This document shows, in pieces, positions 13,501 through 30,400 of a DNA stretch of 64,000 nt. This DNA is from a virus: positions 94,302 through 158,301 of IMG/VR virus record IMGVR_UViG_3300020477_000001. One strand, written 5' to 3'. Position 1 is the stretch's first letter, and each line of letters starts with the position of its first letter. Position numbers and translations under genes: made by a program. The notes under the pieces are model-generated. The model had not been told where the DNA came from and ran no database searches. It saw nothing but the letters and a program-made list of their open reading frames with translations.

Positions 13501-13580
13501 TTGATATTATAACAATGTATACTATATTGTGGTGGCTTTCTGTGTTGGGTTGTTTCAAGAGCACAGTCGTCGCCAGTGAA

Positions 13581-13612
13581 GGGAGCGGGCTTTTGCCCGC
13601 TCTCTTTTTTTT
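13581..13612 (+). terminator. Rho-independent terminator
   Basis: GAGCGGGC-TTTT-GCCCGCTC followed by a T-run. Confidence 0.8.
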
Positions 13613-13621
13613 AAAAACTTC

Positions 13622-13653
13622 TTGACCGAAATTAAAAAACCATATAGCATAAT
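13622..13653 (+). promoter_or_regulatory. sigma70-type promoter of the ncRNA/TnpB unit
   Basis: TTGACC-17 bp-TAGCAT, with the ATTAAAAAAC spacer shared by other promoters in this window. Confidence 0.65.
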
Positions 13654-13657
13654 CCCC

Positions 13658-13819
13658 AGTCGCTAACAGACTGCTACGGTGGGTTGCACCGGAAGGGGAG
13701 GGAAACCTCCAAATGCCGAATAGGTATGGTTCGCTTGCGAAGCAGATTCGGAAAGTTCCTAGGGGTCAACGGGGGGAGGATCATCCCGATCCTCCTCCCG
13801 CCCCCAAACCCTACAACAC
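13658..13819 (+). ncRNA. putative tracrRNA/omegaRNA-like scaffold upstream of the TnpB-like gene
   Basis: Hairpins CGGTG-GGTTG-CACCG, GGAGG-GAAA-CCTCC and CCGAAT..TTCG-CTTG-CGAA..ATTCGG, then AGTTCCT (13754-13760, complementary to the repeat core), a long GC stem and terminal CTACAACAC. Confidence 0.65.
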
Positions 13820-13828
13820 ATCTTTAAA

Positions 13829-15337
13829 ATGAAAAAAAAATCTAAACTTCAAAAGGTTGAACAAGAAACTATTCCTGTTAAATACCGAATCTACCCAAAC
13901 CTTAAGCAACGCAAATACCTTGACAGATGCTTTCTTTCCAGCCGAATCGTATGGAACTGGCTGCTAGGAGTACAGAAAGATTATGACCGTGGTCTTACTG
14001 AATGGGTAAAAGAAAAGTATGCCAAAGAGCTACAGAAATTCTGCAAGAAAGAAGGCTTCGAATTAAGCAGTCCATTTGAGCACGAAAAAATAAAAGAATT
14101 AAAAAAAGGAGAAGCGAAAAAATTTCACACGGAAGTCATTCGCCTCAAGAAGGAGGAAGTTTTCCCCTCTGTCTTAGGGATAGAACTCCTTAAAGCCATT
14201 ATTCCTAATGCAGAAGAAGACGAAATCAAGAAGATGATAGTCAACAAAAAGAATCCTTCCGCTTCTAACAAGACTATCAACATCATGGACTTAAAAAGGC
14301 AAGTAAAAAACCTTCGAGAAGATAAACCAATCTTAAACCAAGTCGCATCCCAAGGAATCCATCACGTACCGCTTAACCTAGCTAAAGCTTGGAAGGCGTG
14401 CTACGACAAGAACCGCCCAGATTCCGGTGAGCCTAAATTCAAGAACAAATTCGCGAAGCAGTCATTCACTTTTGACACAGCAAAGCTTCAAGGAAATAAG
14501 TTATTCCTCCCGCCTAAAAGCAAAAACATTTTCATTAAAACAAAAGTCCATCGAGAGATGGAGGGTGAGCAAAAAACAATTACTGTTACTAAAAGCAAAA
14601 CAGGAGAATACTACGCCTCAGTTAACTTTAGGCAAGATGTATTCTTCCCGAAGCCCAAAAGTTTTAGTAAATCGAGCACGGTTGGCATTGACCTAGGAAT
14701 TAAAGATGACTACATCATTATGTCTAACGACATGGGGTCAATCAAAAACCCAAAATTTTTCAAGAAGCATGAGCGCAAAATCGCAATGCTAAATCGAAAA
14801 TTATCGCGCTCCCAGCCGAATAGCAATTCACGCAACAAAGTTCTACACGAGCTTAACCGCGAGTACGAGAAGCTCTCTAAAGCAAGGGAAGATTTTCAGC
14901 ATAAGGTAACACACCAGATCGTAACTAACCCAAACATCAAGGCGGTGGCTGTCGAGGACTTGAATGTGAAGGGCATGACAGCTAAGAACAAACCAAAGGA
15001 GGGCGAAAATGGCCACTACTTACCAAACAATCAGTGCGCCAAACGAGGACAAAACAAAGCCACTCTGGACGCTGGGTTTGGAAGAGTTAGGCAGATGCTT
15101 GACTACAAATGTAAGCGCAATGGCAAAACGTTTGGAAAAGTTGACAGGTTCTTTGCATCCTCCAAAACATGCAACAACTGCGGTCATATCAATAAAGAGC
15201 TCAAAGTTTCCGACCAGTACTGGACCTGCGAAAAATGTGGCGAGCATCACGAGAGGAACTTTAATGCGGCAAATAACGTGCGAGATGAATTTATACGCGC
15301 AAGCAAGCAGAAAAAGAAAACCAAGAACTCGAAATAA
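13829..15337 (+). CDS. tnpB: TnpB/Cas12f-like RNA-guided RuvC protein, RuvC-III D>N
   Basis: KYRIYPN HTH-OrfB start, PKFK, GIDLG (D288), VEDLNVKGM (E376), CNNCG..CEKCG Zn finger, ERNFNAA (N477); no tnpA nearby. Confidence 0.9.
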   Translation: MKKKSKLQKVEQETIPVKYRIYPNLKQRKYLDRCFLSSRIVWNWLLGVQKDYDRGLTEWVKEKYAKELQKFCKKEGFELSSPFEHEKIKELKKGEAKKFHTEVIRLKKEEVFPSVLGIELLKAIIPNAEEDEIKKMIVNKKNPSASNKTINIMDLKRQVKNLREDKPILNQVASQGIHHVPLNLAKAWKACYDKNRPDSGEPKFKNKFAKQSFTFDTAKLQGNKLFLPPKSKNIFIKTKVHREMEGEQKTITVTKSKTGEYYASVNFRQDVFFPKPKSFSKSSTVGIDLGIKDDYIIMSNDMGSIKNPKFFKKHERKIAMLNRKLSRSQPNSNSRNKVLHELNREYEKLSKAREDFQHKVTHQIVTNPNIKAVAVEDLNVKGMTAKNKPKEGENGHYLPNNQCAKRGQNKATLDAGFGRVRQMLDYKCKRNGKTFGKVDRFFASSKTCNNCGHINKELKVSDQYWTCEKCGEHHERNFNAANNVRDEFIRASKQKKKTKNSK

Positions 15338-15348
15338 TTTTTGCCCAA

Positions 15349-15407
15349 GTGGCTGGCGGCGGCAGAGACTTTTATCTCTTCGGTCCTTGCTCCGCCAGCC
15401 ACATTTT
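15349..15407 (+). terminator. strong stem-loop after tnpB (terminator or structured 3' RNA)
   Basis: GTGGCTGGCGG...CCGCCAGCCAC 11-bp stem with an internal hairpin, then ATTTT. Confidence 0.55.
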
Positions 15408-15538
15408 AAAATAAATAAAAATGAAAAGCGACAATCCAAACCGAGGCAACGGCAAGCACATTCATAAGTCACCAATCAATATGGACAATCCACAAAAAAA
15501 AGAGGATAGTGACTGGTGGGCAGAATTGTGTAAAAAAC

Positions 15539-16111
15539 ATGGAGCAAAAAACGCTTGGAAAAAAGAGAACAAAAAGAAGGTATGACTACGCTCATGGCTC
15601 TGAATCAGCAGTGATCGCCAGAGATGAATACCTCGAAAGAATAAAATGGAAGCCGCACGAATATGAAGTCATAAAAAACAATTACAATAATCATTCTGAT
15701 GCGGAAATAAGCCTCAAGTTCCTGCCTCACCGCACACCCGAATCAATAAGAAGATGTAGGCGCTCAATGAAATGTCACAGAAAGCCGAGCCACCAAATTT
15801 GGACAGAAGAAGAATTAGAATTACTGTATATCCATTGGAGAGACTACGACCAGAGGGAGCTTAAGGAAAAATTCTTCCCAAACAAAACCGTTGAGCAGGT
15901 TAGGAATGCTAAAATGCATCGCGGGCTAAAGAAGCCCCCAGTCTGGACCAATGAAGAGAGAGGCTTGCTGATAGACCACGGAGCGAACTATGACAGAGGA
16001 CAGCTACAGAAGCTGTTTTTCCCAAATAAAACCAAGGACCAAATAAGCCACATGAGAAAGCACCTCGGAATCAGAAGAAACCTAGGCGATAAAGAGATTA
16101 AAAAAGTGTAA
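15539..16111 (+). CDS. Myb/SANT-like repeat DNA-binding protein
   Basis: Three repeats of W..EE..L......F.P.[RK]T. Confidence 0.6.
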   Translation: MEQKTLGKKRTKRRYDYAHGSESAVIARDEYLERIKWKPHEYEVIKNNYNNHSDAEISLKFLPHRTPESIRRCRRSMKCHRKPSHQIWTEEELELLYIHWRDYDQRELKEKFFPNKTVEQVRNAKMHRGLKKPPVWTNEERGLLIDHGANYDRGQLQKLFFPNKTKDQISHMRKHLGIRRNLGDKEIKKV

Positions 16112-16441
16112 TTGATATTGATGAAATCAGAGTATTTCCCTATTCTAATGCTTCTGTCATTTTTATTTTTATTATTTTTTGTCTTGAGATGGAATCGAAT
16201 TAAGATGAAGAATTTCCCAGAGGATATCTCCTTCAAGGATACGCTTAAACAAGTTTTCTTCATTGAGTCTTGACATAGATTAAAAAATCCCCCACCCTAC
16301 ACTCCTTGAAAGAAAAAGACAGCCGCATTAAAAGTTGCGAAAAATGTGGCGTATCAATGCTAAAGATGTTTAATGCTTGCCCGTACTGCGGTTTCTGCCA
16401 AAAGCAAAAAACTAAATTAGCGCAGACAACTAAGGAGAAAC

Positions 16442-16876
16442 ATGAGGAAAAACAAGATTTCATTAGTAAGCGGCGGATTTGATCCAATTCACGTTGGACA
16501 CATAGAACTCTTTAACAGGGCTAGAGAAATCTCTGACGGGCTATTCGTGATCTTGAATAGTGATAGGTTCCTCACAGAAAAGAAGGGCAAGCCCTTCATG
16601 CAGCAACCAGAAAGAAAAGTCATTATTGAAAACTTACAGATGGTTGACTTGGTTATACCTTCAATAGACGAAGACCAAACGGTTTGTGCTACCCTGCGAA
16701 AACTAGCTAGCCTCAAGGACGCAGTTGACTCTGAATTATATTTCTGCAATGGTGGAGACAGGACGGACGGCGAGAACACGCCAGAACACAAAGTCTGCGA
16801 AGAAGTCGGAATACACAACGTTTATGGATTAGGTGAAAAAATCCAAAGCAGTAGTTGGCTTACGAAAGGGAACTGA
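16442..16876 (+). CDS. cytidylyltransferase-family protein
   Basis: SGGFDPIHVGH (HxGH), NGGDR, KIQSSS. Confidence 0.85.
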   Translation: MRKNKISLVSGGFDPIHVGHIELFNRAREISDGLFVILNSDRFLTEKKGKPFMQQPERKVIIENLQMVDLVIPSIDEDQTVCATLRKLASLKDAVDSELYFCNGGDRTDGENTPEHKVCEEVGIHNVYGLGEKIQSSSWLTKGN

Positions 16877-16898
16877 AACACATAAAATCACCGTCGCG

Positions 16899-17450
16899 AT
16901 GAAGAATTTAACCTGCGATAGCAAGAAGGGGAGAGAGTATGAAGCTCACGAAGAGAAAGCTATACTCTATATACAAGAGAAAAGAAATGTTGTAATAACC
17001 TCTACGAGGTCAGAGCTCAATGAGGAATCAAAAATCCTAGAACAAGATATCTTAATCTCCAAAAAAGATGAAAGAGGAATCTTCAGACTAAGGGCGGTAG
17101 GCGAATTTAAGAACAGGAATGAATTCAAAAGAGGCTCTGGAATCCCGTTGACGCTAGAGAAGCTAAAAGGAGATAGACCTAATGACGGCTACATGATTAG
17201 CCTCAGAAAGCTAAAGAGTGGCCAAGCAATGTCTACGTCCCTAAAGGTTCCTTTCGTTGTTATTGTTAATTTAATGAATGATAAATACATTCTCTGCTGG
17301 AAGCTGACCAACGAGAAAGGTCAATGGGTTAAAAGACCGGAATCACTCAAACAAGAGACGCAGAAGAACATTGCAGGGGGAAATAAGCTTGACGACGTAG
17401 TTTATCTTAAATTATCAGAAACAGCTTTTCAACTTGAAAAAAACTACTAA
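16899..17450 (+). CDS. putative PD-(D/E)xK nuclease
   Basis: G.EYE, QD, GEFKNR pattern; weak match. Confidence 0.35.
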   Translation: MKNLTCDSKKGREYEAHEEKAILYIQEKRNVVITSTRSELNEESKILEQDILISKKDERGIFRLRAVGEFKNRNEFKRGSGIPLTLEKLKGDRPNDGYMISLRKLKSGQAMSTSLKVPFVVIVNLMNDKYILCWKLTNEKGQWVKRPESLKQETQKNIAGGNKLDDVVYLKLSETAFQLEKNY

Positions 17451-17479
17451 TAGGTTAAACTGAGAAAACTTAAAAAATT

Positions 17480-17842
17480 ATGAGCGAAGATAACAATAAC
17501 TCTAATACCGAAGAAACTACAAAAAACTCCAAAGACTTTTCGAGGCAAGAGGAAAACTGGAAAATTATGATTTTCTGTAATATTTCTTGGGAAGAGGCTT
17601 CGAAGGTAGAAGGCGACGACAGGGAGTTCCTTTTGCTGAAGGCTGACGAGCAGAAAGTAGAAGTACTCAAAAGGAAAAAAGAGTTGGCCGAGCAACAGAT
17701 GGCAGAGCAGCAGCAACAGGCCATGATGCAACAGCAAGCCTTGATGCAACAGCAGCAAATGATGCCCCAGCAGATGCCAATGCAGCAGCAAATGCCTATG
17801 AACGGCGGCGGTATGCCTCCCCAGATGCCCCAGAGAGTCTAG
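17480..17842 (+). CDS. protein with Q/M/P-rich low-complexity C-terminal tail
   Basis: AEQQMAEQQQQAMMQQQALMQQQQMMPQQMPMQQQMPM. Confidence 0.6.
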   Translation: MSEDNNNSNTEETTKNSKDFSRQEENWKIMIFCNISWEEASKVEGDDREFLLLKADEQKVEVLKRKKELAEQQMAEQQQQAMMQQQALMQQQQMMPQQMPMQQQMPMNGGGMPPQMPQRV

Positions 17843-17849
17843 AGGGAGC

Positions 17850-18167
17850 ATGGATGGCCATTTAAAGCTTCTAAATCCGAAAAGGATAAGAGTTAAGTCG
17901 CTGTGCTGCTCTTATTGTGATCTTTCTTATAACAGAGAACACTATAAGGCTTTATTCGAGGCTAAAAAATTAATTTATTTTAAATCTCTAGATACAAACA
18001 TATTTAGAGAGAAGGAAATAATTTGCCATGACTGTTTAGTTAATCTAGCAGACAAAGAGTCACTTTCATTCAAAGTAGAAACAGATACACATATTCTTAA
18101 ATTAGATATAGACCCAACGATAGGCAATAAAGGCGACACAGATGACTTTTTAGATGATTTAATATAG
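17850..18167 (+). CDS. hypothetical Zn-finger-like protein
   Basis: CSYC and CHDC pairs. Confidence 0.5.
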   Translation: MDGHLKLLNPKRIRVKSLCCSYCDLSYNREHYKALFEAKKLIYFKSLDTNIFREKEIICHDCLVNLADKESLSFKVETDTHILKLDIDPTIGNKGDTDDFLDDLI

Positions 18168-18205
18168 ACTTGACTTAACTTAAAAAACTCTATATCTTCC
18201 TATGC

Positions 18206-19129
18206 ATGTACAATTTGTGCTGCATATCAAATTCATTAGCCAAAGAGGGTCACAAGTTTCAGACCATGACTTGGGCTAGGTTCTCCAAGTTACCCCGCGA
18301 AGAAGCTATTGCAATCGTTTCTGCTCGCACTCTTAACAATCTGAAAGTTACGCGCAAGATTCTTGAGCAGTGTGCAGAGCATGGCTGGGGCTATCGCGTT
18401 AGCTCTGCTTTATTTCCACTTCTTACTTACGATGTAGCAGAACTCAAAATTCAAGACTACCCAGACTGGATTGACATACAAGCTGCATTTGCAGACTGCA
18501 ATATGTTCATCAATGACAATCGTATCCGCATCTCATGTCATCCAGATCAGTTCAATGTTCTTGCAAGCTTGGGTAAAGCGCAGGTAGAAAAGACTATCAA
18601 AGAACTCAATCATCATGGTTGGTTCATGGATATGCTTGGTGCTCCTCGCGACTATCGCGCACCCATCAACATTCATGTCAACAACACCAAAGGCGAGCCT
18701 TCAGAAATTGCTGACCGTTTTATGCTCAACCTTTACAAGTGCGACCAATCTGTACGCTCACGACTAGTCATAGAGAACGAAGACAAAGGCATCTGGACTC
18801 CAGCGTTACTTGTCGAGCATTTCACCACATTGCCCATTACTTACGACAACCTACACCACAAATGCTTACCCGATGGCCTCACAGAGGATGAAGCCTATCG
18901 CTTGTGCTATAACACATGGCAAGATAACGGTTACTTCAAACCACTGTTTCATTACTCAGAGTCTCACCCAGACAAAAACAATCCACGTAGCCATGCCGAC
19001 ACACCCACCGAGATACCGCTGGACGGCGGACATTCTTTCCCTGTTGACTACGACATAGAACTCAAGTCAAAAGATGACGCCATTAAAGAGATACAAAGAT
19101 TAGAACTGAAGGGGTTAATAAATGGATAA
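18206..19129 (+). CDS. uvsE: UV DNA damage endonuclease
   Basis: YRVSSALFP, ISCHPDQFNVL, ENEDK, DNLHH, HYSES, SHAD, ELKSKD. Confidence 0.9.
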   Translation: MYNLCCISNSLAKEGHKFQTMTWARFSKLPREEAIAIVSARTLNNLKVTRKILEQCAEHGWGYRVSSALFPLLTYDVAELKIQDYPDWIDIQAAFADCNMFINDNRIRISCHPDQFNVLASLGKAQVEKTIKELNHHGWFMDMLGAPRDYRAPINIHVNNTKGEPSEIADRFMLNLYKCDQSVRSRLVIENEDKGIWTPALLVEHFTTLPITYDNLHHKCLPDGLTEDEAYRLCYNTWQDNGYFKPLFHYSESHPDKNNPRSHADTPTEIPLDGGHSFPVDYDIELKSKDDAIKEIQRLELKGLING

Positions 19130-20039
19130 AAAAGAGAAAACAAAATCGACAGATAGAAATATAGTTTGCATAGATTGCGGGGAGGAGTTTACAGGATGCT
19201 ATAGAACCAAGAGATGCAAACCCTGCGCGAAAGAGAGGGCGAACGCTTTAGCTAGAAAGAGGAGGGCAGCTAACCCAGAGAAATATCGCACTTACGATAG
19301 AGCTAGATATGCCGCCTCCCCGAAGAGACGTGAGCAATCGCTTGCAAGTCAGCATCGCAATATAGAGAGAACTAGAGCAACCAGAAGAAAGAGTTACAAT
19401 AATAATAGAGATAAAATTTTAGCCAAAGCAAAATCGGATCGCGAGGCTAACCCAGAGAAATATCGTGAACGGAAGAGGGTTGCTTACCGCGCTAACCCAG
19501 AGAAACACCGAAAAGAGGCAAGAGACCGAAGGGCGGCTAATCCAGAAAAGTACCGCGCCCAAGCTAAGGCTAGGTATCATGCCAACCCGCAAAAATTCCG
19601 CGATCAAAGGAAAAAGTCTTTTGAAAACAACCGAGAGGAAGTAAACAGACGAGCTAAGGAGAAAAGGGCAGCTAACCTAGAGAAATATCGCGCTAGAGAC
19701 AAAGAGGCTGAAAAAAGACGACCTGCTGGGCAAGCACTGGCGAAATCCAATGCGAGAAAAGCACTTAAACAGTCTGCAATCTTACCTACAACAGATTTTG
19801 ATAAAATAAAAAATCTTTACAAAGAAAGGACTAGACTAACAAAAAAAACAGGCATAGAGCATCACGTTGATCATATAATCCAATTAACCCTAGGAGGCGC
19901 ACACCATCAAGACAATTTGCGCGTGATAACAGCAAAAGAAAACCTCACAAGGGGTTACGACTACGACCCCACTCTTGGTGGTGTATGGGCAAACAATGAC
20001 CGAGCAAGGAAAACTAAGAAAAAATTAGGAATCAAATAA
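19122..20039 (+). CDS. HNH endonuclease with N-terminal Zn ribbon and ANPEKYR helical repeats
   Basis: CIDC..CKPC; several ANPEK repeats; HVDHIIQL..GGAH..DNLRVITAKEN. Confidence 0.85.
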   Translation: MDKKEKTKSTDRNIVCIDCGEEFTGCYRTKRCKPCAKERANALARKRRAANPEKYRTYDRARYAASPKRREQSLASQHRNIERTRATRRKSYNNNRDKILAKAKSDREANPEKYRERKRVAYRANPEKHRKEARDRRAANPEKYRAQAKARYHANPQKFRDQRKKSFENNREEVNRRAKEKRAANLEKYRARDKEAEKRRPAGQALAKSNARKALKQSAILPTTDFDKIKNLYKERTRLTKKTGIEHHVDHIIQLTLGGAHHQDNLRVITAKENLTRGYDYDPTLGGVWANNDRARKTKKKLGIK

Positions 20040-20207
20040 TGATAACGCCCCCGAAGATCATAGGTTTTATATGGGTAGCATTCTTAACACTGTTTTACTT
20101 CTTCGCCTCAATAGCTGTTTTTATTGTTACTTCAATCGCTAATATTTTTAAAAAAGAATAAATAAAAAACCTTGACTAAAGTTAAAAAACTCTCTATTAT
20201 ATTACCC

Positions 20208-21089
20208 ATGAAGAGAATTGATACTTATTTCGCAAAAGAGTACGAGGCAGACACACCCACTGCCTCTATGCGTAAGTTGCGCCCAGTGGCTGAAGCAGCT
20301 AGTGCTGCTGGTTACGCAAACATCTTGAAGACATCCTCCAGCGAAGGCGTTAGCGACAAGCTAAAAAAAATTCACAATGCAGATTACGTGGAAGCCTTCT
20401 CTAACGGTACTTATCCGCTCAGCGAAAGCAATGGATGGGGCTGGAGCAAAGAGATTAGGGACGGCGTTTTCAGAATTAACACAGGGCAGCTTGACGCTGC
20501 TAAAGCTGCGTTAAGCAACGGCATTGCAGCAAATGTAGCGCAGGGGTTTCACCATGCTGGAATCGAAAGAGGCTGCGGTTATTGTACCTTCAATGGGTTA
20601 GCACTAGTCGCTAATGAATACAAGACCAAGAAAGTATTCGTTTTAGACTGCGATGAGCATGGAGGCAATGGTACGGCTGAGTTTACCAACATACTGGACA
20701 ACTTATCGCAGGTAACCATCAACGGCTCTAATTTCGGAACCGAAGAGAACCCCCGCAGCCGATGCATTACTCTTCCTCGAATCACTAACCGATTTGAGCT
20801 TTACGAAGATGCACTGGAAGAAGGCTTCTCTATAATGGATAGGTTCGAGCCCGACTTGGTTATCTACCAAGCTGGTGCTGATCCTCACATTGACGATCCC
20901 TTGGGCTCTCTGGGTATGACAACCGAACAAATGTACAACAGAGACAAGAAAGTATTTACGAAGCTCAAAGCTTCAAATATACCGACAATGTTCGTACTGG
21001 CGGGGGGCTATCAAACCCCGATTGAGGAAAAACTTGTACCGCTGCACTTGAACACCTTCAAGGCTGCTCACGAAGTATACAACAATTAA
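20208..21089 (+). CDS. histone deacetylase/acetylpolyamine amidohydrolase-family protein
   Basis: GFHHAG, GYCTFN, LDCDEHGGNGT, QAGADPH.DDPLG, GGY; start moved to the leaderless ATG. Confidence 0.9.
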   Translation: MKRIDTYFAKEYEADTPTASMRKLRPVAEAASAAGYANILKTSSSEGVSDKLKKIHNADYVEAFSNGTYPLSESNGWGWSKEIRDGVFRINTGQLDAAKAALSNGIAANVAQGFHHAGIERGCGYCTFNGLALVANEYKTKKVFVLDCDEHGGNGTAEFTNILDNLSQVTINGSNFGTEENPRSRCITLPRITNRFELYEDALEEGFSIMDRFEPDLVIYQAGADPHIDDPLGSLGMTTEQMYNRDKKVFTKLKASNIPTMFVLAGGYQTPIEEKLVPLHLNTFKAAHEVYNN

Positions 21090-21134
21090 AGGAACAACAA
21101 CACAGCACCAAAGATACTATCTCCGTAGCATACT

Positions 21135-21545
21135 ATGAACATCAAAAGAGAAACAACAACAGCATGGGTAGTTTTCCCAGAATATACCCAATGGGAAAAC
21201 AAGGACAATAAAATGTTCTGGGATGAAGATTACGACCTAGAAGCTGCCGCAGATGCTGCCGTAAAACATTCATGGAAAAAGCCCATAATGACTAGAAAAT
21301 GGCCTCGGCCTGTCACTTTCGGTGACTTTGTGCTTGTTACCAATAGCAATTCAAGCGAGTGGTTTAAGATGATTCGCTGTAAAGGCGGATGTAATGGCTA
21401 TGAGTGGCAAGTCTCATCTTGGGAAGAGGTTTTTGGCGAAGAGGCGGCAGTTAGGAAAGACATGAAAGGATACCTTGAAGACGCTGCTAAAGTAAATGAC
21501 GCCCTAACTGAATTTGAGGAGAAACAATGCACAACGGAAAAGTAG
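21135..21545 (+). CDS. hypothetical protein
   Basis: ORF track. Confidence 0.5.
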   Translation: MNIKRETTTAWVVFPEYTQWENKDNKMFWDEDYDLEAAADAAVKHSWKKPIMTRKWPRPVTFGDFVLVTNSNSSEWFKMIRCKGGCNGYEWQVSSWEEVFGEEAAVRKDMKGYLEDAAKVNDALTEFEEKQCTTEK

Positions 21546-21961
21546 GATTTACTTGTAGCTGCTTTGACCTTTTACACGCTGGCCACTGCTTGATGCTGAA
21601 GGACTGCAAAGAGCAGTGCGACTGGCTTGTCGTTGGCCTCCAAACCGACCCCAGCGTCGATAGACCAGAGAAAAACAAACCAGTCCAGTCACTTGAAGAA
21701 AGAAAGATACAATTAGAAAGCATAAAGTACGTTGATCAAGTGCAAATATACGAAACAGAATCAGACCTAGTAAAACTGATTGAGGATGTCCATCCAGACG
21801 TAAGGATACTCGGTAGCGATTATATAAATAAAAAATTCACTGGCGATCACCTAGACATTCCCGTATACTACCACGAAAGAAACCACGATTGGTCCACTAG
21901 CGATTTAAGAAAAAGAATCAAAGGGGAATGGCCTCACCATACAGACTATCTGGATGACTAA
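21527..21961 (+). CDS. glycerol-3-phosphate cytidylyltransferase-like protein
   Basis: FDLLHAGH, LVVGLQTDPS.DRPEKNKP, STSDLR. Confidence 0.85.
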   Translation: MHNGKVGFTCSCFDLLHAGHCLMLKDCKEQCDWLVVGLQTDPSVDRPEKNKPVQSLEERKIQLESIKYVDQVQIYETESDLVKLIEDVHPDVRILGSDYINKKFTGDHLDIPVYYHERNHDWSTSDLRKRIKGEWPHHTDYLDD

Positions 21962-22189
21962 CCAGCGTACTGCAACACAATAAAAAAACGCGATTAATAA
22001 AATAATGAAAGCCTTTCCTTTAGTTCTTTTAATTTTATTTATTTTTATTTCTGGCCCTTTAGTTACCATTTGGATGCTTAATACTCTATTTTCTGTAGAT
22101 ATTCCATACACTTTGGAAACTTGGGCTGCTGCTTTTGTATTAGGAGCCGCGCTTTACGGTCCTAACGCAAGGAAAGAACTACGCGATAA

Positions 22190-22468
22190 ATGAAGAGAGT
22201 AGATATACAAAATCATATAAATGAACACTACCCAGAAATGGATGAAGATATTCTTTTAGCTGATGGATTCGAGAAAGCTTTTTTGGGGATTGCTAATAGT
22301 TATTGCTCCGCGCCCAGAGCTTGCTATGATGCTGATAAATGTATAGAAATCCTAGAAAAGAGAGACGGAATGAGTCATGAGGAAGCTATTGAATTTTTTA
22401 ATTTTAATGTTTCTTCTGCTTATGTCGGGGAGTTTACGCCAGCATTTATGAAATTGGCGCATAGTTGA
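22190..22468 (+). CDS. conserved phage hypothetical protein
   Basis: ADGFEKAFLG...EEAIEFFNFNV..AYVGE.TP. Confidence 0.55.
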   Translation: MKRVDIQNHINEHYPEMDEDILLADGFEKAFLGIANSYCSAPRACYDADKCIEILEKRDGMSHEEAIEFFNFNVSSAYVGEFTPAFMKLAHS

Positions 22469-22738
22469 TATTTCTTGACACTGTTTTTGTTTATGTTATT
22501 TTTTCGGCCATGAGAATGGCCGACTTCGTGAAAGGGCATAATAAGCTGAAAATTAGCAGTTTTCAGTACCTTTGTGCGTTTCAAGCTGGCCACTTAGATA
22601 AAGACAAGGATGATTCTTATTGTCCTTATACATTTCCGCCGCAAATAGAAGCATATTTTCAAGGTAAAAAAAATAAAAACAAAAAAATTATTAACAAATT
22701 CTTGACTTAATTAAAAATGAATGGAATAGTGGGACTCC

Positions 22739-23692
22739 ATGAGTAGCTACCTAGAAGAAAAGTCGTCGGAAGATTTATATTTTAATGAAATTTCAAGATA
22801 CGATTTAATCTCCTCGGATCGAGAAAAAGAGTTAGCAAAAAAAATAAAAAAAGGCGGAAGAACTGGCAAAAAAGCCCTTGAAGAATTAGTTAATGCTAAT
22901 TTAAGATTAGTCGTAAAGATAGCTGGAGAGTTCAAAGGCTTTGGGTTGGATTCTGGCGATTTAATCAACGAGGGAAACCTCGGATTGATGAGGGCCGCTG
23001 AAAAGTATGATGGCCGCGAAGGCGTTAAGTTTTCAACATATTCCGCGTATTGGATAAGGCAAAGTATCTACAGAGCCCTCTCGAATAAGAGCAGAACAAT
23101 TAGGCTTCCCGTTCATGTTTGCGCTGCTAATTCTAAAATAATTAAATTTATTTCAAAATACCAAGAATCCAACAATGGAAAAAAGCCTTCAGTTAAGCAG
23201 ATAGCGAAAGCCACCAACGCAACAGAAAGATTGGTGTCGGATGTAATAAATGGTGGAGTGACCAACGTAAACTCTCTAGACAGAGAAATCGGAACTGATG
23301 ACAGCGGCTCTAAAGAGACCCTAGGGAACATAATTGAGGACCAAAACGCTGAATCCCCCGACCAAATCTGGAAAAACGTGGAAGATGTTAGTATTCTATT
23401 AAAATTGATACAAAAATTAAATAATAGAGAAAGATACATAATTTGCAATAGATATGGAATAGGAACCAAGACCCCAAAAACTCTAGAAGAAATTGGGGAA
23501 CACTTCGGCGTTACTAGGGAAAGAATAAGGCAGGTACAAAAAGTAGCAATGATGAAGTTAAAAAACTACATGGATAAGTATTATAGATACAAGCCAGAGG
23601 TTGAGGATCATTATGTTGAAGGCCGAAGATTTGTAGCAAGGGTTAAAAGAGAAGAAAAAGCCAGAGAAAAGAAAAAAAAGGTTAAAAAATAG
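22739..23692 (+). CDS. RpoD/RpoS-like sigma-70 factor
   Basis: ANLRLVVKIA, DLINEGNLGLMRAAEKYD, FSTYSAYWIRQ, TLEEIG..FGVTRERIRQ. Confidence 0.92.
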   Translation: MSSYLEEKSSEDLYFNEISRYDLISSDREKELAKKIKKGGRTGKKALEELVNANLRLVVKIAGEFKGFGLDSGDLINEGNLGLMRAAEKYDGREGVKFSTYSAYWIRQSIYRALSNKSRTIRLPVHVCAANSKIIKFISKYQESNNGKKPSVKQIAKATNATERLVSDVINGGVTNVNSLDREIGTDDSGSKETLGNIIEDQNAESPDQIWKNVEDVSILLKLIQKLNNRERYIICNRYGIGTKTPKTLEEIGEHFGVTRERIRQVQKVAMMKLKNYMDKYYRYKPEVEDHYVEGRRFVARVKREEKAREKKKKVKK

Positions 23693-23944
23693 TGTAATTT
23701 TTTTAAGAACTGCTACACTGGTTCAATAATAGAATAACAATCAAACTAAATATGTAAACACAACAACAATAAAGGGGGCGCATGAAAGATTCAGAATTAT
23801 TATTAAGGGAGGTTTCTTTTGAGTTATTAGGCAAGTTGAACGATACTTACGAAAGTGATTCCGAATATGCGGCGGGGCAAAGGTTTGCATACCTTAAATC
23901 AATTTTAATCATTAAAAAGAAACTATCTGAAACTAGGAATAATA

Positions 23945-24514
23945 ATGCCAAGACACCCAATTGATGATGAGGTTTACACGTTCGACGATATAGGCAAAAA
24001 TGCGCCAAGGTTGAGCTACAATCGTAAAATTAAAAAGATCGTCTTCGAGAACTACGAAGCTTTCTGGCTTTTGCTTCACGCCACAAAACACCCAGATATT
24101 ATTAATGGAGTTATCTTTGAAACAGATGACAACTTCAAGGCTCATTATATAAAACAAACAGGGGATAAAGACTTAAATAATCTTTATATAAATAAATTTA
24201 TTTTAAAAGAGATGATGGAGGCTATGAACATAAGCGACCAGCATGATACCTTCCAAGGGTCATTCCAAGATAAGAATATGCACCTCTGGATGACCAACCA
24301 AAATGAATCCGAGAACATGGAGGATGCCAAGGTTCTCAGCAGTAAGTCTCAGTCAGAGCGGCAGAAGAGATTTGATCAAAAGACCAAGGAGAGAGAGCAA
24401 CAAGGAGAAGAAAGAATGAACGCACAAGAATTCCTTGAGTGGTCATCGGAGCATGTAGAAGAAGACTTAAAAAAGAGAATAGATGCAGGAGACACAAATT
24501 GGAAATTCTTATAA
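23945..24514 (+). CDS. hypothetical protein
   Basis: ORF track. Confidence 0.5.
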   Translation: MPRHPIDDEVYTFDDIGKNAPRLSYNRKIKKIVFENYEAFWLLLHATKHPDIINGVIFETDDNFKAHYIKQTGDKDLNNLYINKFILKEMMEAMNISDQHDTFQGSFQDKNMHLWMTNQNESENMEDAKVLSSKSQSERQKRFDQKTKEREQQGEERMNAQEFLEWSSEHVEEDLKKRIDAGDTNWKFL

Positions 24515-25381
24515 TGCAAAAGCCAGACAACAAAATGAAGCGCTGGCTAAACTCTCAGACCAAAGATTTAAAAAAAATTAATTTTAATTCTCTGGTAAAT
24601 TCATTCAAAGACAAGTTTAAGGTCAGTATCAACGATGCTCGTATGTACGTGATGCAATGGGACCACGACAGAAACAAGCATTAAACCGCCGTATTAGATG
24701 CTTGACATATATTAAAAAACTCCTTATCATATATCTACAGACATACCTTAAGATATATATAGGAACAAACAATGGACTTAATATTTGCGGCAATAGTGAT
24801 ATACTTCTTCTGCTTTGCTTTTAAGCAGCTAGTCAAGGATTTGTAAATCGAGGGGGAGCTACAACACAACAAATTGTGAAAACAATAGCCCTGTTTTTAC
24901 GAGCTTTTTACACATTTTTTAAAACACTCACAGTGAACTACAACACTATAAGCTAGTATGGAACTAATAAACACAATAAAGCATTTCAAAAGAATAAAAT
25001 AAAATATTGAAGTGTATTAAAATGGGTTAATGTGGGGTGCATATTATATATATATCCGTCAAGCATTAAATTTAAAAACTATTCACATATTTATTAACAC
25101 TGAAACCACGTCAAGCAAAAACAACAAAAAACAATAAAAAACTTATTAATATTTTCTAAGTCAAGAAAAAACAAACAAAAACTTAAAAAATTATTATTGA
25201 CTATATAGCAAATATATGGGCTTAAAACCAAGAAAAGAAGGAGAAGCAAAAAGAATAGCAACATACATAATATTAATCATATATGGAATTGTTATACTTA
25301 TAGTTTATCTATTAAATAAATTATTTTCTTGACACAGATAAATGGAATTAAAACACAATAAAGAATAGAGGGTTTTTTTTG

Positions 25382-25482
25382 TTGACTTAACTTAAATAAA
25401 TTAGTATAATGTTTCCAAAGGGGCTTCATCACAACAAAGGTAAGATTTTTCTTGACTTAAGTTAAATAATATATTAAAATTT
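25382..25482 (+). promoter_or_regulatory. tandem duplicated sigma70 promoters upstream of the repeat region
   Basis: TTGACT-17-TATAAT at 25382-25410 and a near-copy at about 25453, both followed by TTTCCAAAGGG; no ORF downstream. Confidence 0.6.
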
Positions 25483-25577
25483 TCCAAAGGGATTTTTTTT
25501 ATTTTTTTTAATTCTTATAATAGGAATTATTTTTTTCTTGACAAGTAAATAATGTTTCTTATTCTTATTATGCTTAA

Positions 25578-25795
25578 GGAGCTACACCACGTTATTAACA
25601 CCAACGTACACGGAACTACACCACCCATTTGCCGACGATTGATTTTTAAGGAACTAAAGCACGGATTCGAACTCACGTCTGGAACTACGACACCCATTTA
25701 CCAAGGAGCCGCAACACGTCGAATGCAGTGGTATATTTGTGAACGCAATCGAGCCAAATAATAGGAACTAAATACACGAGGTCGGGAGTTCAGAA
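25578..25795 (+). repeat. mini-array of 13-nt cores GGARCT-NNNN-CAC
   Basis: Cores at 25578, 25612, 25650, 25681, 25705 and 25764, separated by unique sequence. Confidence 0.7.
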
Positions 25796-25800
25796 AAGCC

Positions 25801-25829
25801 TTGACTCATCTTAAAAAACTCTTCATAAT
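25801..25829 (+). promoter_or_regulatory. promoter of the CRISPR array
   Basis: TTGACT-catcttaaaaaactctt(17)-CATAAT; same class as the tnpB-unit promoter. Confidence 0.7.
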
Positions 25830-25925
25830 AGTCCCCAGATTAAGAAACTGATCTTTGACATAGGCACTGCAACACACGAGGCCAAAGACATTCAAGGGAC
25901 TACAACACAACATTATGGTATTCCT

Positions 25926-26476
25926 TAGCAATTTAAGGGACTGCAACACAGTAAGGCGATTATAACATCGCGCTCGACGGTTCGCACTGGTACTAATTTA
26001 AGGGACTGCAACACTGCAACCATGCTAACTAACGTGGTTACACAGCTTCGCACTGGTAGCAATTTAAGGGACTGCAACACTGTTACACACATCGCTGCGA
26101 TGAAGCGGCGGCTTCGCACTGGTACAGATTTTAGGGACTGCAACACCGTATCAGAACGAGATATCGTCCCGCCTTGGGCTTCGCACTGGTAGCAATTTAA
26201 GGGACTGCAACACTTAGTCGAACCGCATAACGTCGAGTGTCTGCTTCGCACTGATAGCAATTTAAGGGACTGCAACACAATGAGGCAGATAATGGAAGGG
26301 GTAGCTAGCTTCGCACTGATAGCAATTTAAGGGACTGCAACACAAAACTGCACCAACAGGAAGCGGAATCACAGTTTTGCACTGGTACTAATTTAAGGGA
26401 CTGCAACACAAGGGGTGACGTAGTGGAAGCGACCACATAAGCTTCGCACTGGTACAGATTTTAGGGACAACAACAC
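25926..26476 (+). CRISPR. CRISPR array: 8 full repeats plus 1 partial, 36 bp (GCTTCGCACTGGTAGCAATTTAAGGGACTGCAACAC), 8 spacers of 29-31 bp, no adjacent cas genes
   Basis: Repeats start at 25926 (partial), 25979, 26045, 26111, 26178, 26243, 26308, 26374, 26441; spacers are unique, lengths 29,30,30,31,29,29,30,31. Confidence 0.92.
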
Positions 26477-26495
26477 AGTAAAGAACCCTACGTAC

Positions 26496-27358
26496 ATATT
26501 TGTGAATGATTTTTGGACAAATAAAGGAACAACAACACTGAATCTCTAGGCGATATTTGTGAATGATTTTAAGGCAAATAAAGGGAACTACAACACTCTG
26601 TTAAAGTCCGTCCAACACGAGGCGGCGAGAATTGATGCCGATCAAAATACTTAATTATTGATTGACTAATTTTTTTGTCGCTCATTTGTGAACGTCAAAG
26701 AGGCAAATAATATAGGGGAATTAAATTAGATATTTTAGATTAATAGGGACTAATTAAACACGATGCTCAATCCCAATATTGTTAATTTATGAATGATTTT
26801 TTGCCAAATAAGGGTTATTTAACATAAGGGAATTTCGTATACAAGAAAAATGTTGCCCCGGAGAAAACACCCCCTTATAAGAAATATATTAAAGGAACTA
26901 AAACACAACAAAAGTGATGAAGAATTTAATTTTAATTATTATTATTTTAATTATTACTGGTTGTTATACAGCCAAGGAAAGAGTAATGCCTCTTGGTCCC
27001 CATGATGATAGCTATGGTAAGAATTGGGTAAGTAATTAAGGAACTGTAACACCAAATCCAGCATGGCGTTTAGATATTTTGGGAACTAAAACACGGGTAT
27101 AGCTCATTTGAAATAGGAACTAGAACACATGTGGTGCGCCATTATATTTGTGAACGCGATTTTTGCAAATAAAGGAACTACAACACCAGCGGTTTCAGAA
27201 GCTATCTGTGAACGCGATTTTTGCAAATAAAGGAACTACAACACCCGTCATGGAATTATAACACTAACTCCTCAGATGGAACTACAACACGTTGAGATAC
27301 TGCTTTCGCGGGAGCTATCTGTGAACACAATTTTTGCAAATATAGGGAACTACAACAC
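26496..27358 (+). repeat. second repeat family (~43 bp) ATATTTGTGAAYG..TTTT.GCAAATAAAGGAACTACAACAC
   Basis: Copies at 26496-26538, 26553-26596, 27144-27186, 27203-27244, 27316-27358 (also 25733-25777; decayed copies near 26684 and 26785). Confidence 0.75.
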
Positions 27359-27510
27359 GACGGGAACTCACGACGGAGAGTTAATCAAGGAACAACAACA
27401 CGAAAACTTTTTCTGTATTCTTGATCTTGTAATGGAACTACAACACTCAAGGGCGGCTCATTTTAATTTAAAATAAAAAAGGGAACTACGACACTTGCTA
27501 TTATTAATTG
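27040..27510 (+). repeat. mini-array of 13-nt cores
   Basis: Cores at 27040, 27082, 27116, 27174, 27232, 27252, 27278, 27346, 27389, 27434, 27482. Confidence 0.75.
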
Positions 27511-27589
27511 TATCTTTAATTAGTGTAATTATTATTGTCTATAAGTTTTTATTGACTGTAATTAAATTGCTCTATATAAAAGGATACAC

Positions 27590-27826
27590 ATGAAAAAAAA
27601 GAAACTATCCCCGCAAGCCCAAATATACGAGAAGGCTTGGAACGACGTAGTGTCCGAAATGAGTGACCATAAAAGAAATATTATTATTAATAATTTTACT
27701 GTTGTCAGTGGTCATCATGTATATGAGAATAAATATGATCAAAGGGTAGCAGATGAAGCAGCTAAGGAAGCCCGTATACGAGGTGACCAACAAATAGAAG
27801 CACTGTTTCCAACTGGCAAGTATTAA
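27590..27826 (+). CDS. hypothetical protein
   Basis: ORF track; upstream TTGACT promoter. Confidence 0.5.
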   Translation: MKKKKLSPQAQIYEKAWNDVVSEMSDHKRNIIINNFTVVSGHHVYENKYDQRVADEAAKEARIRGDQQIEALFPTGKY

Positions 27827-27827
27827 A

Positions 27828-27925
27828 GGTACTACAACACGAGCGGGCACTACAGTGGTAGGAACAACAACACAGTCCCCTGCTATAATCTATGGAACTA
27901 AAGCACGAGTGCATATAGTAGAAAA
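27828..27925 (+). repeat. three-unit mini-array, 33-bp period (13-nt core plus 20-nt spacer)
   Basis: Cores at 27828, 27861 and 27894, directly after a stop codon. Confidence 0.75.
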
Positions 27926-27977
27926 AAATAAAAAAAAATAATTGACTTAAATTAAAAAAAACTTCATACTGGTCGCC

Positions 27978-28220
27978 ATGAAGAGAAAAGGTTCTGGCAA
28001 AACAAAGGGAGCGACCAGCTTCGTACAAGTGACACTGGGAGAGCTCAACCGCGTACTCAAAGAGGGTGCAGTGGTTGTGGTCAGTCGCAAGTACGCCGAG
28101 CAACTGGAGCTCGATTCTAAGCCCATGTATTCTAATTACAAGAATCTTGAGGCCCACTCAAACCAAATCGATGTCAAGATCGATGAACCGGAGGACACAA
28201 TTGATTTCAAAGTAGAATAA
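27978..28220 (+). CDS. hypothetical protein
   Basis: ORF track; leaderless promoter architecture. Confidence 0.6.
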   Translation: MKRKGSGKTKGATSFVQVTLGELNRVLKEGAVVVVSRKYAEQLELDSKPMYSNYKNLEAHSNQIDVKIDEPEDTIDFKVE

Positions 28221-28293
28221 TGGAATAACAACACGAACGAAAAGACTTCATAAAAGTCTTGACCTAACTTAAAAAACTATATAATATATCCCT

Positions 28294-29253
28294 ATGACGA
28301 ACGAACGAACTATCCCCAACCCTTTCGAGGGTATCATTGGCCAAAAGAAGGCTAAGAAACAGATAAACTTTTACAGGCGAGGCTACAATGCCACAGGTAT
28401 TCTTCCTCACCTATTGTTTGTTGCTCCGAAAGGATGCGGCAAGACCATGCTGGCTAAGGCTGTTAAAGACACTCTTATGTCCAGAGAGAACCCAGAGAAA
28501 GCTAAGAAGTTTCTGGAGATTAACTGCTCTACGCTTCGCAACGTCAAGCAGTTCTTTAATCAAATCATGATTCCTCATGTTCAACACGAGGAAGTCACAA
28601 TCTTATTCGATGAATCCTCTGAGATTCCTCACGATGTTTCGATGGCACTGCTTACGTGCTTAAACCCGAACAAGCATAATCGTAACGAGTTCTCTTACGA
28701 GGACTATACGGTAGAGATTGACTTCTCGCGACACACTTTCATGTTCGCCACCACCGAGGTGCAGACCATGTTCCACGCTCTTATTGACCGATGCAAGCGC
28801 ATCGATCTACAGGAGTACTCTTTAAAGCAACTCGGACAGATTCTCAAGGTTAACCTTGAGGGTATCGAGTTCGAGGAGGGTCTGATGCCCGACATCGCCT
28901 CTACTCTTAGGGGCAATGCTCGTAAAGCAGTTCAGACTGCCAACGACATTTCCTCGTACATGGCGGCGGAGGAGCGAGGTTACTTCACTCGCAAGGACTG
29001 GAACCTGTTCAAAGATGAGCTAGGAATCGAGCCACTCGGATTGTCTCCGATTGAGATTCAACTCTTAGAGATTCTCAACGACAAACCAGAGTGCAGCTTG
29101 ACCTACCTGTCAGCCAAGACTGGCATGACCAAGGCGGCAGTACAGAGGGACATTGAGATGTACCTTCTCAAGAACGATCTAATGGAGATCGGCACTGGCG
29201 GACGCAAGATCACCAACAATGGACGTGAGACCTTGGAGGTCATCAATGGATAA
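28294..29253 (+). CDS. ruvB: Holliday junction branch migration ATPase, RuvB-like
   Basis: IIGQ, HLLFVAPKGCGKT, LFDE, FATTE, LIDR, RGNARKA, C-terminal winged helix E.YL..GRKIT. Confidence 0.8.
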   Translation: MTNERTIPNPFEGIIGQKKAKKQINFYRRGYNATGILPHLLFVAPKGCGKTMLAKAVKDTLMSRENPEKAKKFLEINCSTLRNVKQFFNQIMIPHVQHEEVTILFDESSEIPHDVSMALLTCLNPNKHNRNEFSYEDYTVEIDFSRHTFMFATTEVQTMFHALIDRCKRIDLQEYSLKQLGQILKVNLEGIEFEEGLMPDIASTLRGNARKAVQTANDISSYMAAEERGYFTRKDWNLFKDELGIEPLGLSPIEIQLLEILNDKPECSLTYLSAKTGMTKAAVQRDIEMYLLKNDLMEIGTGGRKITNNGRETLEVING

Positions 29254-30332
29254 AGTTACTGCGGAACAGCTTAAGAGAGAGCCATCGGCTCCCTTCGATA
29301 GAATCGTTCGTCATATGGAGGATTTCCTCGCTGCGCGGATGTGCAGCGAGGAGTCCTTCAACCAAGTGAAGCGTAACACCTACAAGTACACAGACTGCGG
29401 CGCTTGGATTGACGAGGACGAGAACGGTATTACTGTAGGAAGTATTGTCGAAGGAGCAGACTACGGAACCTCGACTTACGTTTTAATCTACCCATTCAAG
29501 ATTCAAGAATTCTGGGATGCATTGAATGAAGTAGAGATGGAGGCTAAACAAATCTGGGAGGAGGTCAATGGAGAAGAACAATGACATAGACTTCGCAATA
29601 TTAAACCAAAAAAGATATGAAAAATATAAAGGAATTAATTTAAGTACTTGTTTCTTAGTACATGAATCAGAAAAGGGACACATGAAGGACTGGACTTGTA
29701 TCACGCGGAATGATGACTTCTTTAGAGTAAACATTATCGCAGGTATGGTCTCAATGATGAGAGGAGAAACAGAGTACGACATTACGGGACCAGCAACAAA
29801 TATACTAAACCCCGTACTAGGATTACAGAACAAAGAAGATTTGGAAAAATGTAAATTCTCTGATATAAAGAAGTTTATGAAATGGAGAATCAATAAAGAT
29901 AACTATATAGAATAAGATTATGAATAAGAAAGATACAAATACATATGTTGTTAAGATGACCGAAACCAGCAACGGAGTGGTCGTAGACTCAGTGCAGCAA
30001 CTCGTACAAGTGCTCGGTGTAGATCGTGAGAAGTATAAGACTATCGACAAGCGCGACTTCACCAGCAAGCATCTCAATACTGTTACTAAATTCACAGCGC
30101 GTTAATGAAGAAGTCTCACTGGAAAGAAGGTCTTGAAATACCCAAGCCACCAAAGGGAATCACTCACGCCCAAATAAAGTGTGGCAAGAAGAAGTCTACC
30201 GTAACTATAAACGACTTCGACACTTTCCGAGGGGTAGAGGGAATGGTGCGCTGGGGTAAGCAAAAGAAGAACAGTAAAACAATTGAATTAATAGGAGAAG
30301 AATTCTTTTGGGACGGATTTAAAGTAGAATAG
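29246..30332 (+). CDS. run of four small hypothetical genes (29246-29584, 29568-29915, 29920-30105, 30105-30332)
   Basis: ORF track; overlapping starts and stops. Confidence 0.5.
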
Positions 30333-30400
30333 GAACTACAACACAACATAATATTCGCGACTCGCAAGGGAACTACAACACGTTCAAGGACTTGGTATAA
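30332..30400 (+). repeat. two 13-nt cores GGAACTACAACAC at a stop codon
   Basis: 30332-30344 and 30369-30381, 24-nt spacer. Confidence 0.7.

Follow-up and report, generated by a model that had tools for sequence, protein, structure and literature searches.

A TnpB-derived effector, an upstream scaffold RNA and dispersed 13-nt handles point to a candidate RNA-guided system in a marine phage

Array-only variants of the type V systems of CRISPR-Cas (short palindromic repeats, clustered and regularly interspaced, and associated proteins) have arisen repeatedly from TnpB, with the array usually located downstream of the gene, and inactivated regulatory derivatives have been described as well (PMC10691335). 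In dCas12f-sigmaE, guides of 14-16 nt direct RNA-guided transcription (PMC13472631), and TldR repressors are carried by phages (10.1101/2023.11.30.569447). Here we compare with these systems a locus in a 64,000-nt stretch of viral DNA, from here on the window, which constitutes the last 64 kb (94302-158301) of the complete 158,301-bp IMG/VR record IMGVR_UViG_3300020477_000001 with direct terminal repeats and to which all positions refer unless stated otherwise. The locus contains a TnpB-family effector gene, a structured RNA encoded upstream of it, termed the scaffold, and dozens of units, each consisting of a 13-nt core, or handle, and a guide on its 3' side (Table 1). Judging from sequence comparisons, we hold with moderate confidence that it encodes a vertically inherited phage RNA-guided system that descends from TnpB and would amount to a minimal form of type V CRISPR-Cas lacking genes for adaptation.

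In its protein component, the locus is closest to the TnpB of IS200/IS605 elements. The effector displays the HTH/WED, RuvC and zinc-finger (TNB) architecture and the fold of TnpB, its best named match in a sequence search of the PDB being ISDra2 TnpB (E 1e-30) and the top Foldseek match of its AlphaFold2 model being TnpB 8h1j (E 7e-19), and Fanzor, Cas12p, Cas12f and LaTranC score below ISDra2 TnpB. A search of 5.8 billion proteins places it in a clade of nine clusters, at 39-95% identity over the full length of about 500 residues, the remaining matches being ordinary TnpBs of 390-415 residues that align to the C-terminal two thirds only. This rare and distinct clade differs from ordinary TnpBs in that its N-terminus is about 100 residues longer and 19 residues are inserted after RuvC-II. 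In contrast to IS200/IS605 elements, the phage locus shows neither transposon ends nor multiple copies, and the whole genome lacks a Y1 TnpA, a Cas1 and a second gene with a TNB domain. The single copy of the effector gene is syntenic, with the order DUF2283, Hydrolase_2 (a cell-wall hydrolase) and effector kept in contigs whose effector is 68-71% identical, and because these relatives share the same neighbours we regard the gene as domesticated and vertically inherited. As in ISDra2, the guide would lie 3' of a structured scaffold. However, the phage RNA is located upstream of the gene rather than over its 3' end and is split, with dozens of guides; downstream of the effector, no omega-RNA-like fold was detected in the region 15180-15500 (z = -0.66), which holds a terminator hairpin only.

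A second pronounced difference concerns the active site. In TnpB and Cas12f, the aspartate of the RuvC-III motif DxNAA is the third catalytic residue. In all nine members of the clade this position is occupied by an asparagine (N477), the motif reading H-E-R-N-x-N-A instead of the canonical H-D-R-D-x-N-A-A, and an intact D-E-D triad is thus absent. Since the replacement extends over the whole clade, binding would be likelier than cutting, and the effector probably does not act as a cutting nuclease. Like TldR and dCas12f-sigmaE, to which it may be compared, the protein would be a domesticated immobile effector with an impaired RuvC site that works with short conserved guides and addresses host genes. 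Whereas those proteins are C-terminally truncated or carry several changes in RuvC, the phage effector is of full length with one residue changed, and whereas they use one or few full-length single guide RNAs encoded beside the gene, the phage has dozens of split guides and an array; the presence of fixed guides is shared in part. Also, dCas12f pairs with an extracytoplasmic function (ECF) sigma factor, which has a C-terminal extension and is encoded in the same operon, while the sigma factor found nearby in the phage is of the full sigma-70 type and its gene lies 7.4 kb away.

The scaffold RNA is located behind a terminator (13578-13607) that ends the preceding operon. Its fold is more stable than that of any of 200 shuffled sequences (z = -3.5), and it is found upstream of every clade gene fetched (L009, L015-17, L011, L014, L106 and L012) as well as upstream of a 27%-identical TnpB in the outgroup L099, a 130-kb IMG/VR contig. 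In a consensus calculated with RNAalifold from seven sequences, 13 of the 29 pairs are accompanied by compensatory double changes and GGAAAGUUCC is unpaired; no family in Rfam matches this RNA. The promoter at 13622 is of the early type and belongs to one family with those preceding the arrays (25382, 25452 and 25801), which counts 12 copies in the genome and probably represents a general early class of this phage.

The units are defined by their core. Its exact pattern, GGAACTNNNNCAC, matches 18 times, always on the plus strand, compared to 0.31 matches expected from shuffled sequences. When up to two mismatches to GGAACTACAACAC are permitted, the whole 158,301-bp genome contains 45 copies on the plus and 2 on the minus strand, and a stricter definition leaves 42 units. 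Nearly all cores are confined to 24.8-28.3 kb of the window, with outliers at 16869, 21091, 28222, 30332 and 30369, and the other 140 kb of the genome are nearly devoid of them. They come in four formats. In the first, the core forms the 3' end of a true CRISPR repeat of 36 nt, present in eight full copies and one truncated copy (25914-26476) with a period of 65-67 bp and spacers of 29-31 nt. In the second, comprising five to six units, it belongs to a hairpin repeat, TATTTGTGAAC..GCAAATA, in which TATTTG and CAAATA enclose a 15-nt loop. The remaining two formats consist of about 29 bare cores in mini-arrays and of solitary units. The majority of units reside in arrays free of open reading frames (ORFs), and the sequence 3' of each core is unique, with no guide occurring twice within the window. 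An earlier note on this DNA, made from its letters and a list of its ORFs, had described a lone TnpB-family gene preceded by its own promoter and a structured RNA, and about 45 cores on the plus strand, in four formats and each followed by unique sequence, all of which is borne out by these results.

The main evidence for a scaffold acting in trans is provided by its co-variation with the units. The handle AGGAAC is complementary to GUUCCU in the scaffold, where the anti-handle starts with AGTTCC at 13754-13759 and covers 6-8 nt of the core but not all 13. Three states are found in different lineages. In the first, which includes the window, a scaffold with GUUCC coincides with the handles GGAAC, GGGAC, GGAGC or GGAAU; in the second (L012/L013) the scaffold contains GUCCC and the handles are GGGA[CT] in 8 of 8 cases and never GGAAC; in the third, found in the outgroup L099, AAUCC in the scaffold goes with a complete handle, GGAUUACGACAAC (GGAUU), that comes after the terminal hairpin on one RNA, which also includes the guide, as in IS200/IS605 elements. 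In 83 units from four lineages sharing GUUCC, handle positions 1-5 show 60 substitutions, of which 49 are either A-to-G or C-to-U and keep the pairing as G.U; the pairing-breaking transition G-to-A at positions 1-2 is met once, and position 6 is free. The intact GGATTACGACAAC of L099 is found at the place where the cis handle has decayed in the clade of the window (AACCCUACAACAC; UUUUCAAACAC in L011-type relatives), and this decay would leave the anti-handle free. Because handle and anti-handle co-vary over three states, the data support a scaffold that acts in trans and has arisen by the split of a single omega-RNA-like guide RNA. We considered a longer duplex joining the 36-nt repeat to the 5' end of the scaffold but rejected it, since the repeat portion concerned is variable within the array.

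Units are present in every clade locus with sufficient flanking sequence. In L011 and L014, the same 36-nt repeat begins at the stop codon of the effector and is accompanied by bare and hairpin units; L012/L013 contain two arrays, with the same repeat near the gene; L106 contains six units, and L009, which covers only -2.3 to +4.8 kb, a single one, as does the matching part of the window. Since the array directly follows the gene in relatives, its distance of 10.6 kb in the window is derived and specific to this lineage. The order of guide family G5, array, guide family C and guide family AGTCYCCTGCT (families described below) is common to the window and L014. As a separate observation, L012 carries, in minus orientation at about 5990-6060, the 3' half of a repeat and a guide directly after the 3' end of a tRNA gene (…GGTTCGAATCC…CCA), where tRNA processing could free the 5' end of the guide RNA.

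These comparisons also bear on the remaining points of the earlier note. The promoter type it had described as shared between array and effector unit is indeed of one family but not specific to the system, and the complement of the core it had seen in the scaffold extends to the 6-8 nt described above and not to the whole element. Its proposal of one trans-acting scaffold serving dozens of guides gains support from the compensatory changes in the scaffold, the co-variation of handles and the joined RNA of L099, all at the level of sequence. The distance of 1.5-15 kb between gene and guides applies to the window, though not to relatives in which the array adjoins the gene. Of the two checks it had suggested in homologues, compensatory changes of the anti-repeat are seen in the three lineage states (GUUCC, GUCCC and AAUCC) and co-occurrence of clade gene and core in L011, L014, L106, L012/L013 and L009.

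With type V-F and V-U systems, the locus shares a small TnpB-derived effector, an array of 36-nt repeats without cas1 and cas2, and guides located 3' of the repeat (PMC10691335). In relatives the array is located immediately downstream of the effector, which adds to this resemblance, as would a separate RNA that pairs with the 3' part of the repeat. In contrast to these systems, the phage effector is nearer to TnpB than to Cas12f by sequence and fold, its functional repeat, apparently reduced to 13 nt, takes four formats, one of them solitary units within operons, its anti-repeat duplex would comprise only 5-8 bp, part of the guides is fixed across lineages, and the RuvC-III residue is altered. 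The 2025 work on TranC reportedly introduced a concept of 'RNA splitting'. To our knowledge, TranCs are active nucleases, and we know of none from phages or with dispersed 13-nt units. As in TranC (LaTranC, PDB 9jfo), the phage RNA would be intermediate between an omega-RNA and the combination of trans-activating and CRISPR RNA, although only the TNB domain of the effector resembles LaTranC (E about 1e-18).

The first 9-16 nt of several guides have been conserved between phages with only about 40% identical effectors. They define the families A (GTTATTAAYACN), B1/B2 (CCAYTTRCCNAYNAT), C (TGAATCTYYARGYGAT) and G5 (GAGGTCGGGARTTCA) and a fifth one with the sequence AGTCYCCTGCT. In families A and B, differences recur with a period of three nucleotides and a single pair of sense and antisense frames is set apart from the remaining four, and the differences in G5 are only synonymous in an antisense frame. 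For family A, the frame analysis favours the sense frame, with possible readings as xVLIT, which is like a sulfatase N-terminal motif, or as VINTN in sense. Probable targets emerge for family B. The B1 17-mer of the window, scanned against 185,579 species genomes, has at least 120 matches. Of the 119 viewed in context among those listed, 28 share one sequence context, and no fewer than 24 of them are exact and located in sulfatase genes, where the guide is antisense to the codons A-I-V-G-K-W of the motif GYxTAIVGKWHLG. All seven B guides in the frame analysis read [IMY][VIM]GKW, and in five genomes the degenerate family B pattern occurs at 1-7 sites each, compared to 0-1 for a control. The location of the matches, the GKW reading and these site counts provide good evidence that the family derives from sulfatase-type genes, which it probably also addresses. 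The same site counts led us to reject a multi-copy 'genome shredding'.

Matches to the other guides in five genomes with the B1 17-mer showed no excess, and the family A 21-mer had no match in GTDB genomes. In BLAST searches with the array region, two samples of 400 genomes from different phyla, one centred on a Planctomycetaceae metagenome-assembled genome (MAG) and the other on a Verrucomicrobia MAG, yielded chance-level or low-complexity matches only, and no cross-targeting was found among the fetched phage loci. One conserved guide matches sulfatase genes, and no common protospacer- or target-adjacent motif was derived. The sole significant self-match concerns 21109-21127, which from the sixth base after the core is antisense to an ORF of 82 residues (39803-40051) in 19 of 19 positions and may reflect self-regulation or a remnant of duplication. 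Two tRNA-like guides (25663 and 25778) were considered as tRNA-targeting, which found no support.

We propose a mechanism in which the scaffold, split from an ancestral RNA that contained scaffold and handle as in L099, would pair in trans with AGGRRY of each unit, and the effector would read ACAACAC together with the 14-31-nt guide located 3' of the handle. The units would be transcribed from early-type promoters and excised from arrays and intergenic parts of mRNAs, and the complex would most likely bind its targets without cutting, as do TldR, dCas12f and Cas12m. There would be two sets of guides. The first, fixed between lineages, would address conserved coding motifs, including at a minimum the GKW motif of sulfatases, and the second would be variable and encoded in the CRISPR array. 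The system would probably serve to manipulate host genes or to exclude rival elements early in infection.

A number of observations weigh against this proposal. The duplex between handle and scaffold is short and its energy alone not significant, and many units descend from one another, the array repeats being copies, so that the wobble counts are not independent. For the array spacers, neither the phage genome nor related loci, IMG/VR or a sample of about 800 genomes yielded a target. Start codons, that of the effector among them, follow some cores at a distance of 0-31 nt, and this hints at a different or an additional role. A guide that is antisense to a gene is in a poor orientation for a transcription roadblock of the Cas12 type (dCas12a), and by analogy this would apply to the phage guides if they are antisense to genes. 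Finally, a single asparagine in RuvC is no proof of lost cleavage, and E475, located two residues upstream, could conceivably compensate.

The last point leads to an alternative in which the same architecture would contain an active nuclease, the D-to-N change being tolerated or compensated, and would serve as a type V CRISPR-like weapon against host or competitor DNA. The residues D288 of RuvC-I and E376 of RuvC-II, R476 and four zinc-finger cysteines are invariant in an alignment of the clade, E475 is a conserved acidic residue, the effector is of full length unlike the truncated TldR and dCas12f, and type V nucleases have been described from phages (Cas-lambda, PMC12141684; Cas12 'hacker', 10.1101/2025.01.20.633832). 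We nevertheless regard it as unlikely, as N477 is located exactly at the D of DxNAA, where all canonical relatives in the alignment contain an aspartate, and guides conserved over long evolutionary distances fit regulation better than an arms race. Moreover, the change is fixed in members that are only about 40% identical, which makes it ancient and subject to selection.

The orientation of the guides has a different implication if the complex targets RNA, in which case handle and guide would form antisense RNAs, loaded onto the protein, that act on mRNAs of the host and on some of the phage. All 24 genomic matches of family B among those listed place the guide antisense to the coding strand of the sulfatase gene, the synonymous differences of G5 fall in an antisense frame, the self-match is antisense to its ORF, and the orientation that is weak for a DNA roadblock would suit this purpose. 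RNA-targeting type V effectors exist (Cas12g), whereas we know of no TnpB that has been shown to target RNA, and family A favours the sense frame and the nearest folds are those of DNA-targeting TnpBs, which makes this alternative quite unlikely in our view. A bolder version of our proposal, which we offer as speculation at long odds, holds that a cleavage-impaired TnpB-derived protein is a programmable carrier of dozens of antisense RNAs with 13-nt handles, all loaded by one trans scaffold, and silences host gene families via conserved coding motifs such as sulfatase GKW, possibly at the mRNA level; if true, a transposon nuclease would here have been turned into an RNA-interference-like device for host takeover.

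A more distant alternative treats the cores as signals in transcripts, either processing sites or elements of 5' leaders, that act independently of the TnpB-like protein, with the array as a separate relic. The proximity to start codons of the cores at 13810, 16869, 21091, 26894 and 27116 and the location of all cores on the transcribed strand are in line with such a role, yet we consider it very unlikely, because the units mostly reside in ORF-free arrays, the core is the end of a CRISPR repeat that co-varies with a scaffold encoded beside the effector, and it always accompanies the gene in other lineages while nearly absent from the rest of the genome. The core at 16869 is kept in the 95% relative L016, where the 17 nt after it are identical in 10 of 17 positions (compared to a mean column identity of 92% in the alignment). 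Since cores precede start codons and this one is conserved without the sequence that follows, units may also serve in mRNA processing, and some solitary cores may be incidental or have a dual role.

Interference with host CRISPR by solitary repeat units and mini-arrays is known from phages. In their short arrays, single repeats and lack of adaptation genes these resemble our locus (PMC11656645), but they normally borrow or block host Cas proteins, whereas here effector and scaffold are encoded by the phage and co-vary with the units. That the units are RNA anti-CRISPR decoys, solitary repeats soaking up a type V effector of the host as in related cases (10.64898/2026.06.01.729453 and 10.64898/2026.06.03.729762), is scarcely credible for a phage with its own effector and scaffold, whose handles track its own anti-handle across lineages and whose guides show conservation and a codon pattern for which a decoy would have no use.

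Table 1. Features of the effector locus and of the core-plus-guide units, in window coordinates.
Feature	Position	Strand	Description and basis
Promoter of scaffold and effector unit	13622..13650	+	TTGACC, 17 nt, TAGCAT, then TATAGCATAAT stretch; consensus scan
Scaffold (tracr-like) RNA	13652..13822	+	About 170 nt, GC-rich; ends inferred
Anti-handle AGTTCCTA	13754..13761	+	Unpaired in consensus structure; GGAAAGTTCC invariant in window, L009, L015, L011 and L014
Degenerate cis handle (AACCCTACAACAC)	13807..13819	+	At scaffold 3' end, 9 nt before effector ATG; sequence
Effector ORF	13829..15337	+	502 residues; Pfam HTH_OrfB_IS605, OrfB_IS605 and Cas12f1-like_TNB, above cut-off
Terminator-like hairpin after effector	15347..15405	+	Sequence and fold
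Solitary unit	16869..16898	+	Core overlaps stop codon of upstream gene, then 17 nt, then next ATG
Solitary unit	21091..21134	+	nt 6-24 after core match window 40016-40034 (-), 19/19
Two bare units	24855..24946	+	Cores at 24855 and 24934
Bare unit (GGAATTAAAACAC)	25344..25356	+	Upstream of early-type promoters 25382 and 25452
Promoter-like site (25538-25565) and six-unit mini-array	25538..25800	+	Guide families A (25591), B1 (25625), B2 (25694) and G5 (25778); consensus and core scans
Early-type promoter (25801-25829), bare units (25863, 25896) and 5'-truncated repeat	25801..25949	+	
CRISPR array	25979..26496	+	8 x 36-nt repeats ending GGGAC[TA][GA]CAACAC, terminal 20-nt guide; repeat families D1, D2
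Two hairpin-repeat units	26497..26613	+	Cores 26526 and 26584, first with conserved guide family C; repeat family D3
Bare unit	26894..26906	+	10 nt upstream of small lipoprotein-like ORF 26917-27039
Mixed mini-array	27040..27510	+	About 12 units, bare and hairpin-type, guides 7-55 nt
Three bare units	27828..27926	+	33-bp period, 20-nt guides; second is conserved family AGTCYCCTGCT
Solitary unit	28222..28258	+	Just ahead of early-type promoter
Two exact cores	30332..30400	+	37 bp apart, after ORF 30105-30332

Within the array region, two decayed copies of the hairpin repeat with degenerate handles (26684-26730, GGGGAATTAAATTAG; 26784-26826, GGGTTATTTAACAT) are probably dead units, and an ORF of 40 residues on the plus strand (26917-27039), below the cut-off of 50 residues, encodes a lipoprotein-type signal peptide (MKNLILIIIILIITGC...). 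We rejected an assignment of the mini-array at 25578-25720 to a 69-residue ORF (25552-25761, plus strand), as the conserved guide families need different frames and relatives contain frame-shifting indels inside the core, with conservation at the nucleotide level only; this ORF is probably spurious. A scan of IMG/VR for tandem cores was likewise discarded, its matches being unrelated coding repeats with a 15-nt period. Such repeats, GGAACTGCAACACCG (G-T-A-T-P), which occur in the unrelated viruses L245, L321, L325, L284 and others, mimic the core in DNA and are a pitfall for motif-only searches.

The source phage is marine with a genome of lytic type. Its large terminase (TerL) is about 24% identical to the terminases of SPbeta-like and 949-like phages, and no close relatives were found among GenBank phages by megablast of the region or in IMG/VR by a protein-pattern scan. 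A metagenome scan with peptide patterns that were too general returned only ordinary TnpBs of at most 39% identity. The related contigs used in this study originate from marine and other metagenomes and include a TARA scaffold. A full-length sigma-70-family gene (regions 1.2, 2, 3 and 4; 22739-23692, plus strand) is located between effector and arrays and is also found in the contig of the 71% relative. The early-type region includes genes for a UvdE-type UV endonuclease and a histone-deacetylase-family protein (18206-21089), the latter with many metagenomic homologues at 50-74% identity. Outside the window, genes for tRNAs Arg-TCT and Val-TAC are located just ahead of it (genome 92712-92870), and a single ORF of 4,792 residues is found at genome 11595-25973.

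A full-text literature search retrieved no description of this clade or of a dispersed 13-nt handle. By these comparisons, the novelty of the locus resides in a split and minimised handle that occurs in several formats with a scaffold encoded upstream of the gene, and in the single-residue change of RuvC in a full-length protein combined with a fixed and codon-patterned guide set in a lytic-type phage genome. With its separable scaffold and 13-nt handles, the 502-residue effector may be of interest for multiplexed tools. The system would offer a natural snapshot of the splitting of an omega-RNA into a scaffold and minimal CRISPR RNAs, with the unsplit state kept in a related phage, and it suggests that the handle of a type V system can be as short as about 13 nt and lie dispersed over operons, which CRISPR finders leave aside. 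The locus would also add a phage lineage to the RNA-guided proteins with altered active site and fixed guides, which are apparently aimed at cellular coding motifs, and it points to an RNA-guided manipulation of hosts beyond the single-guide TldR.

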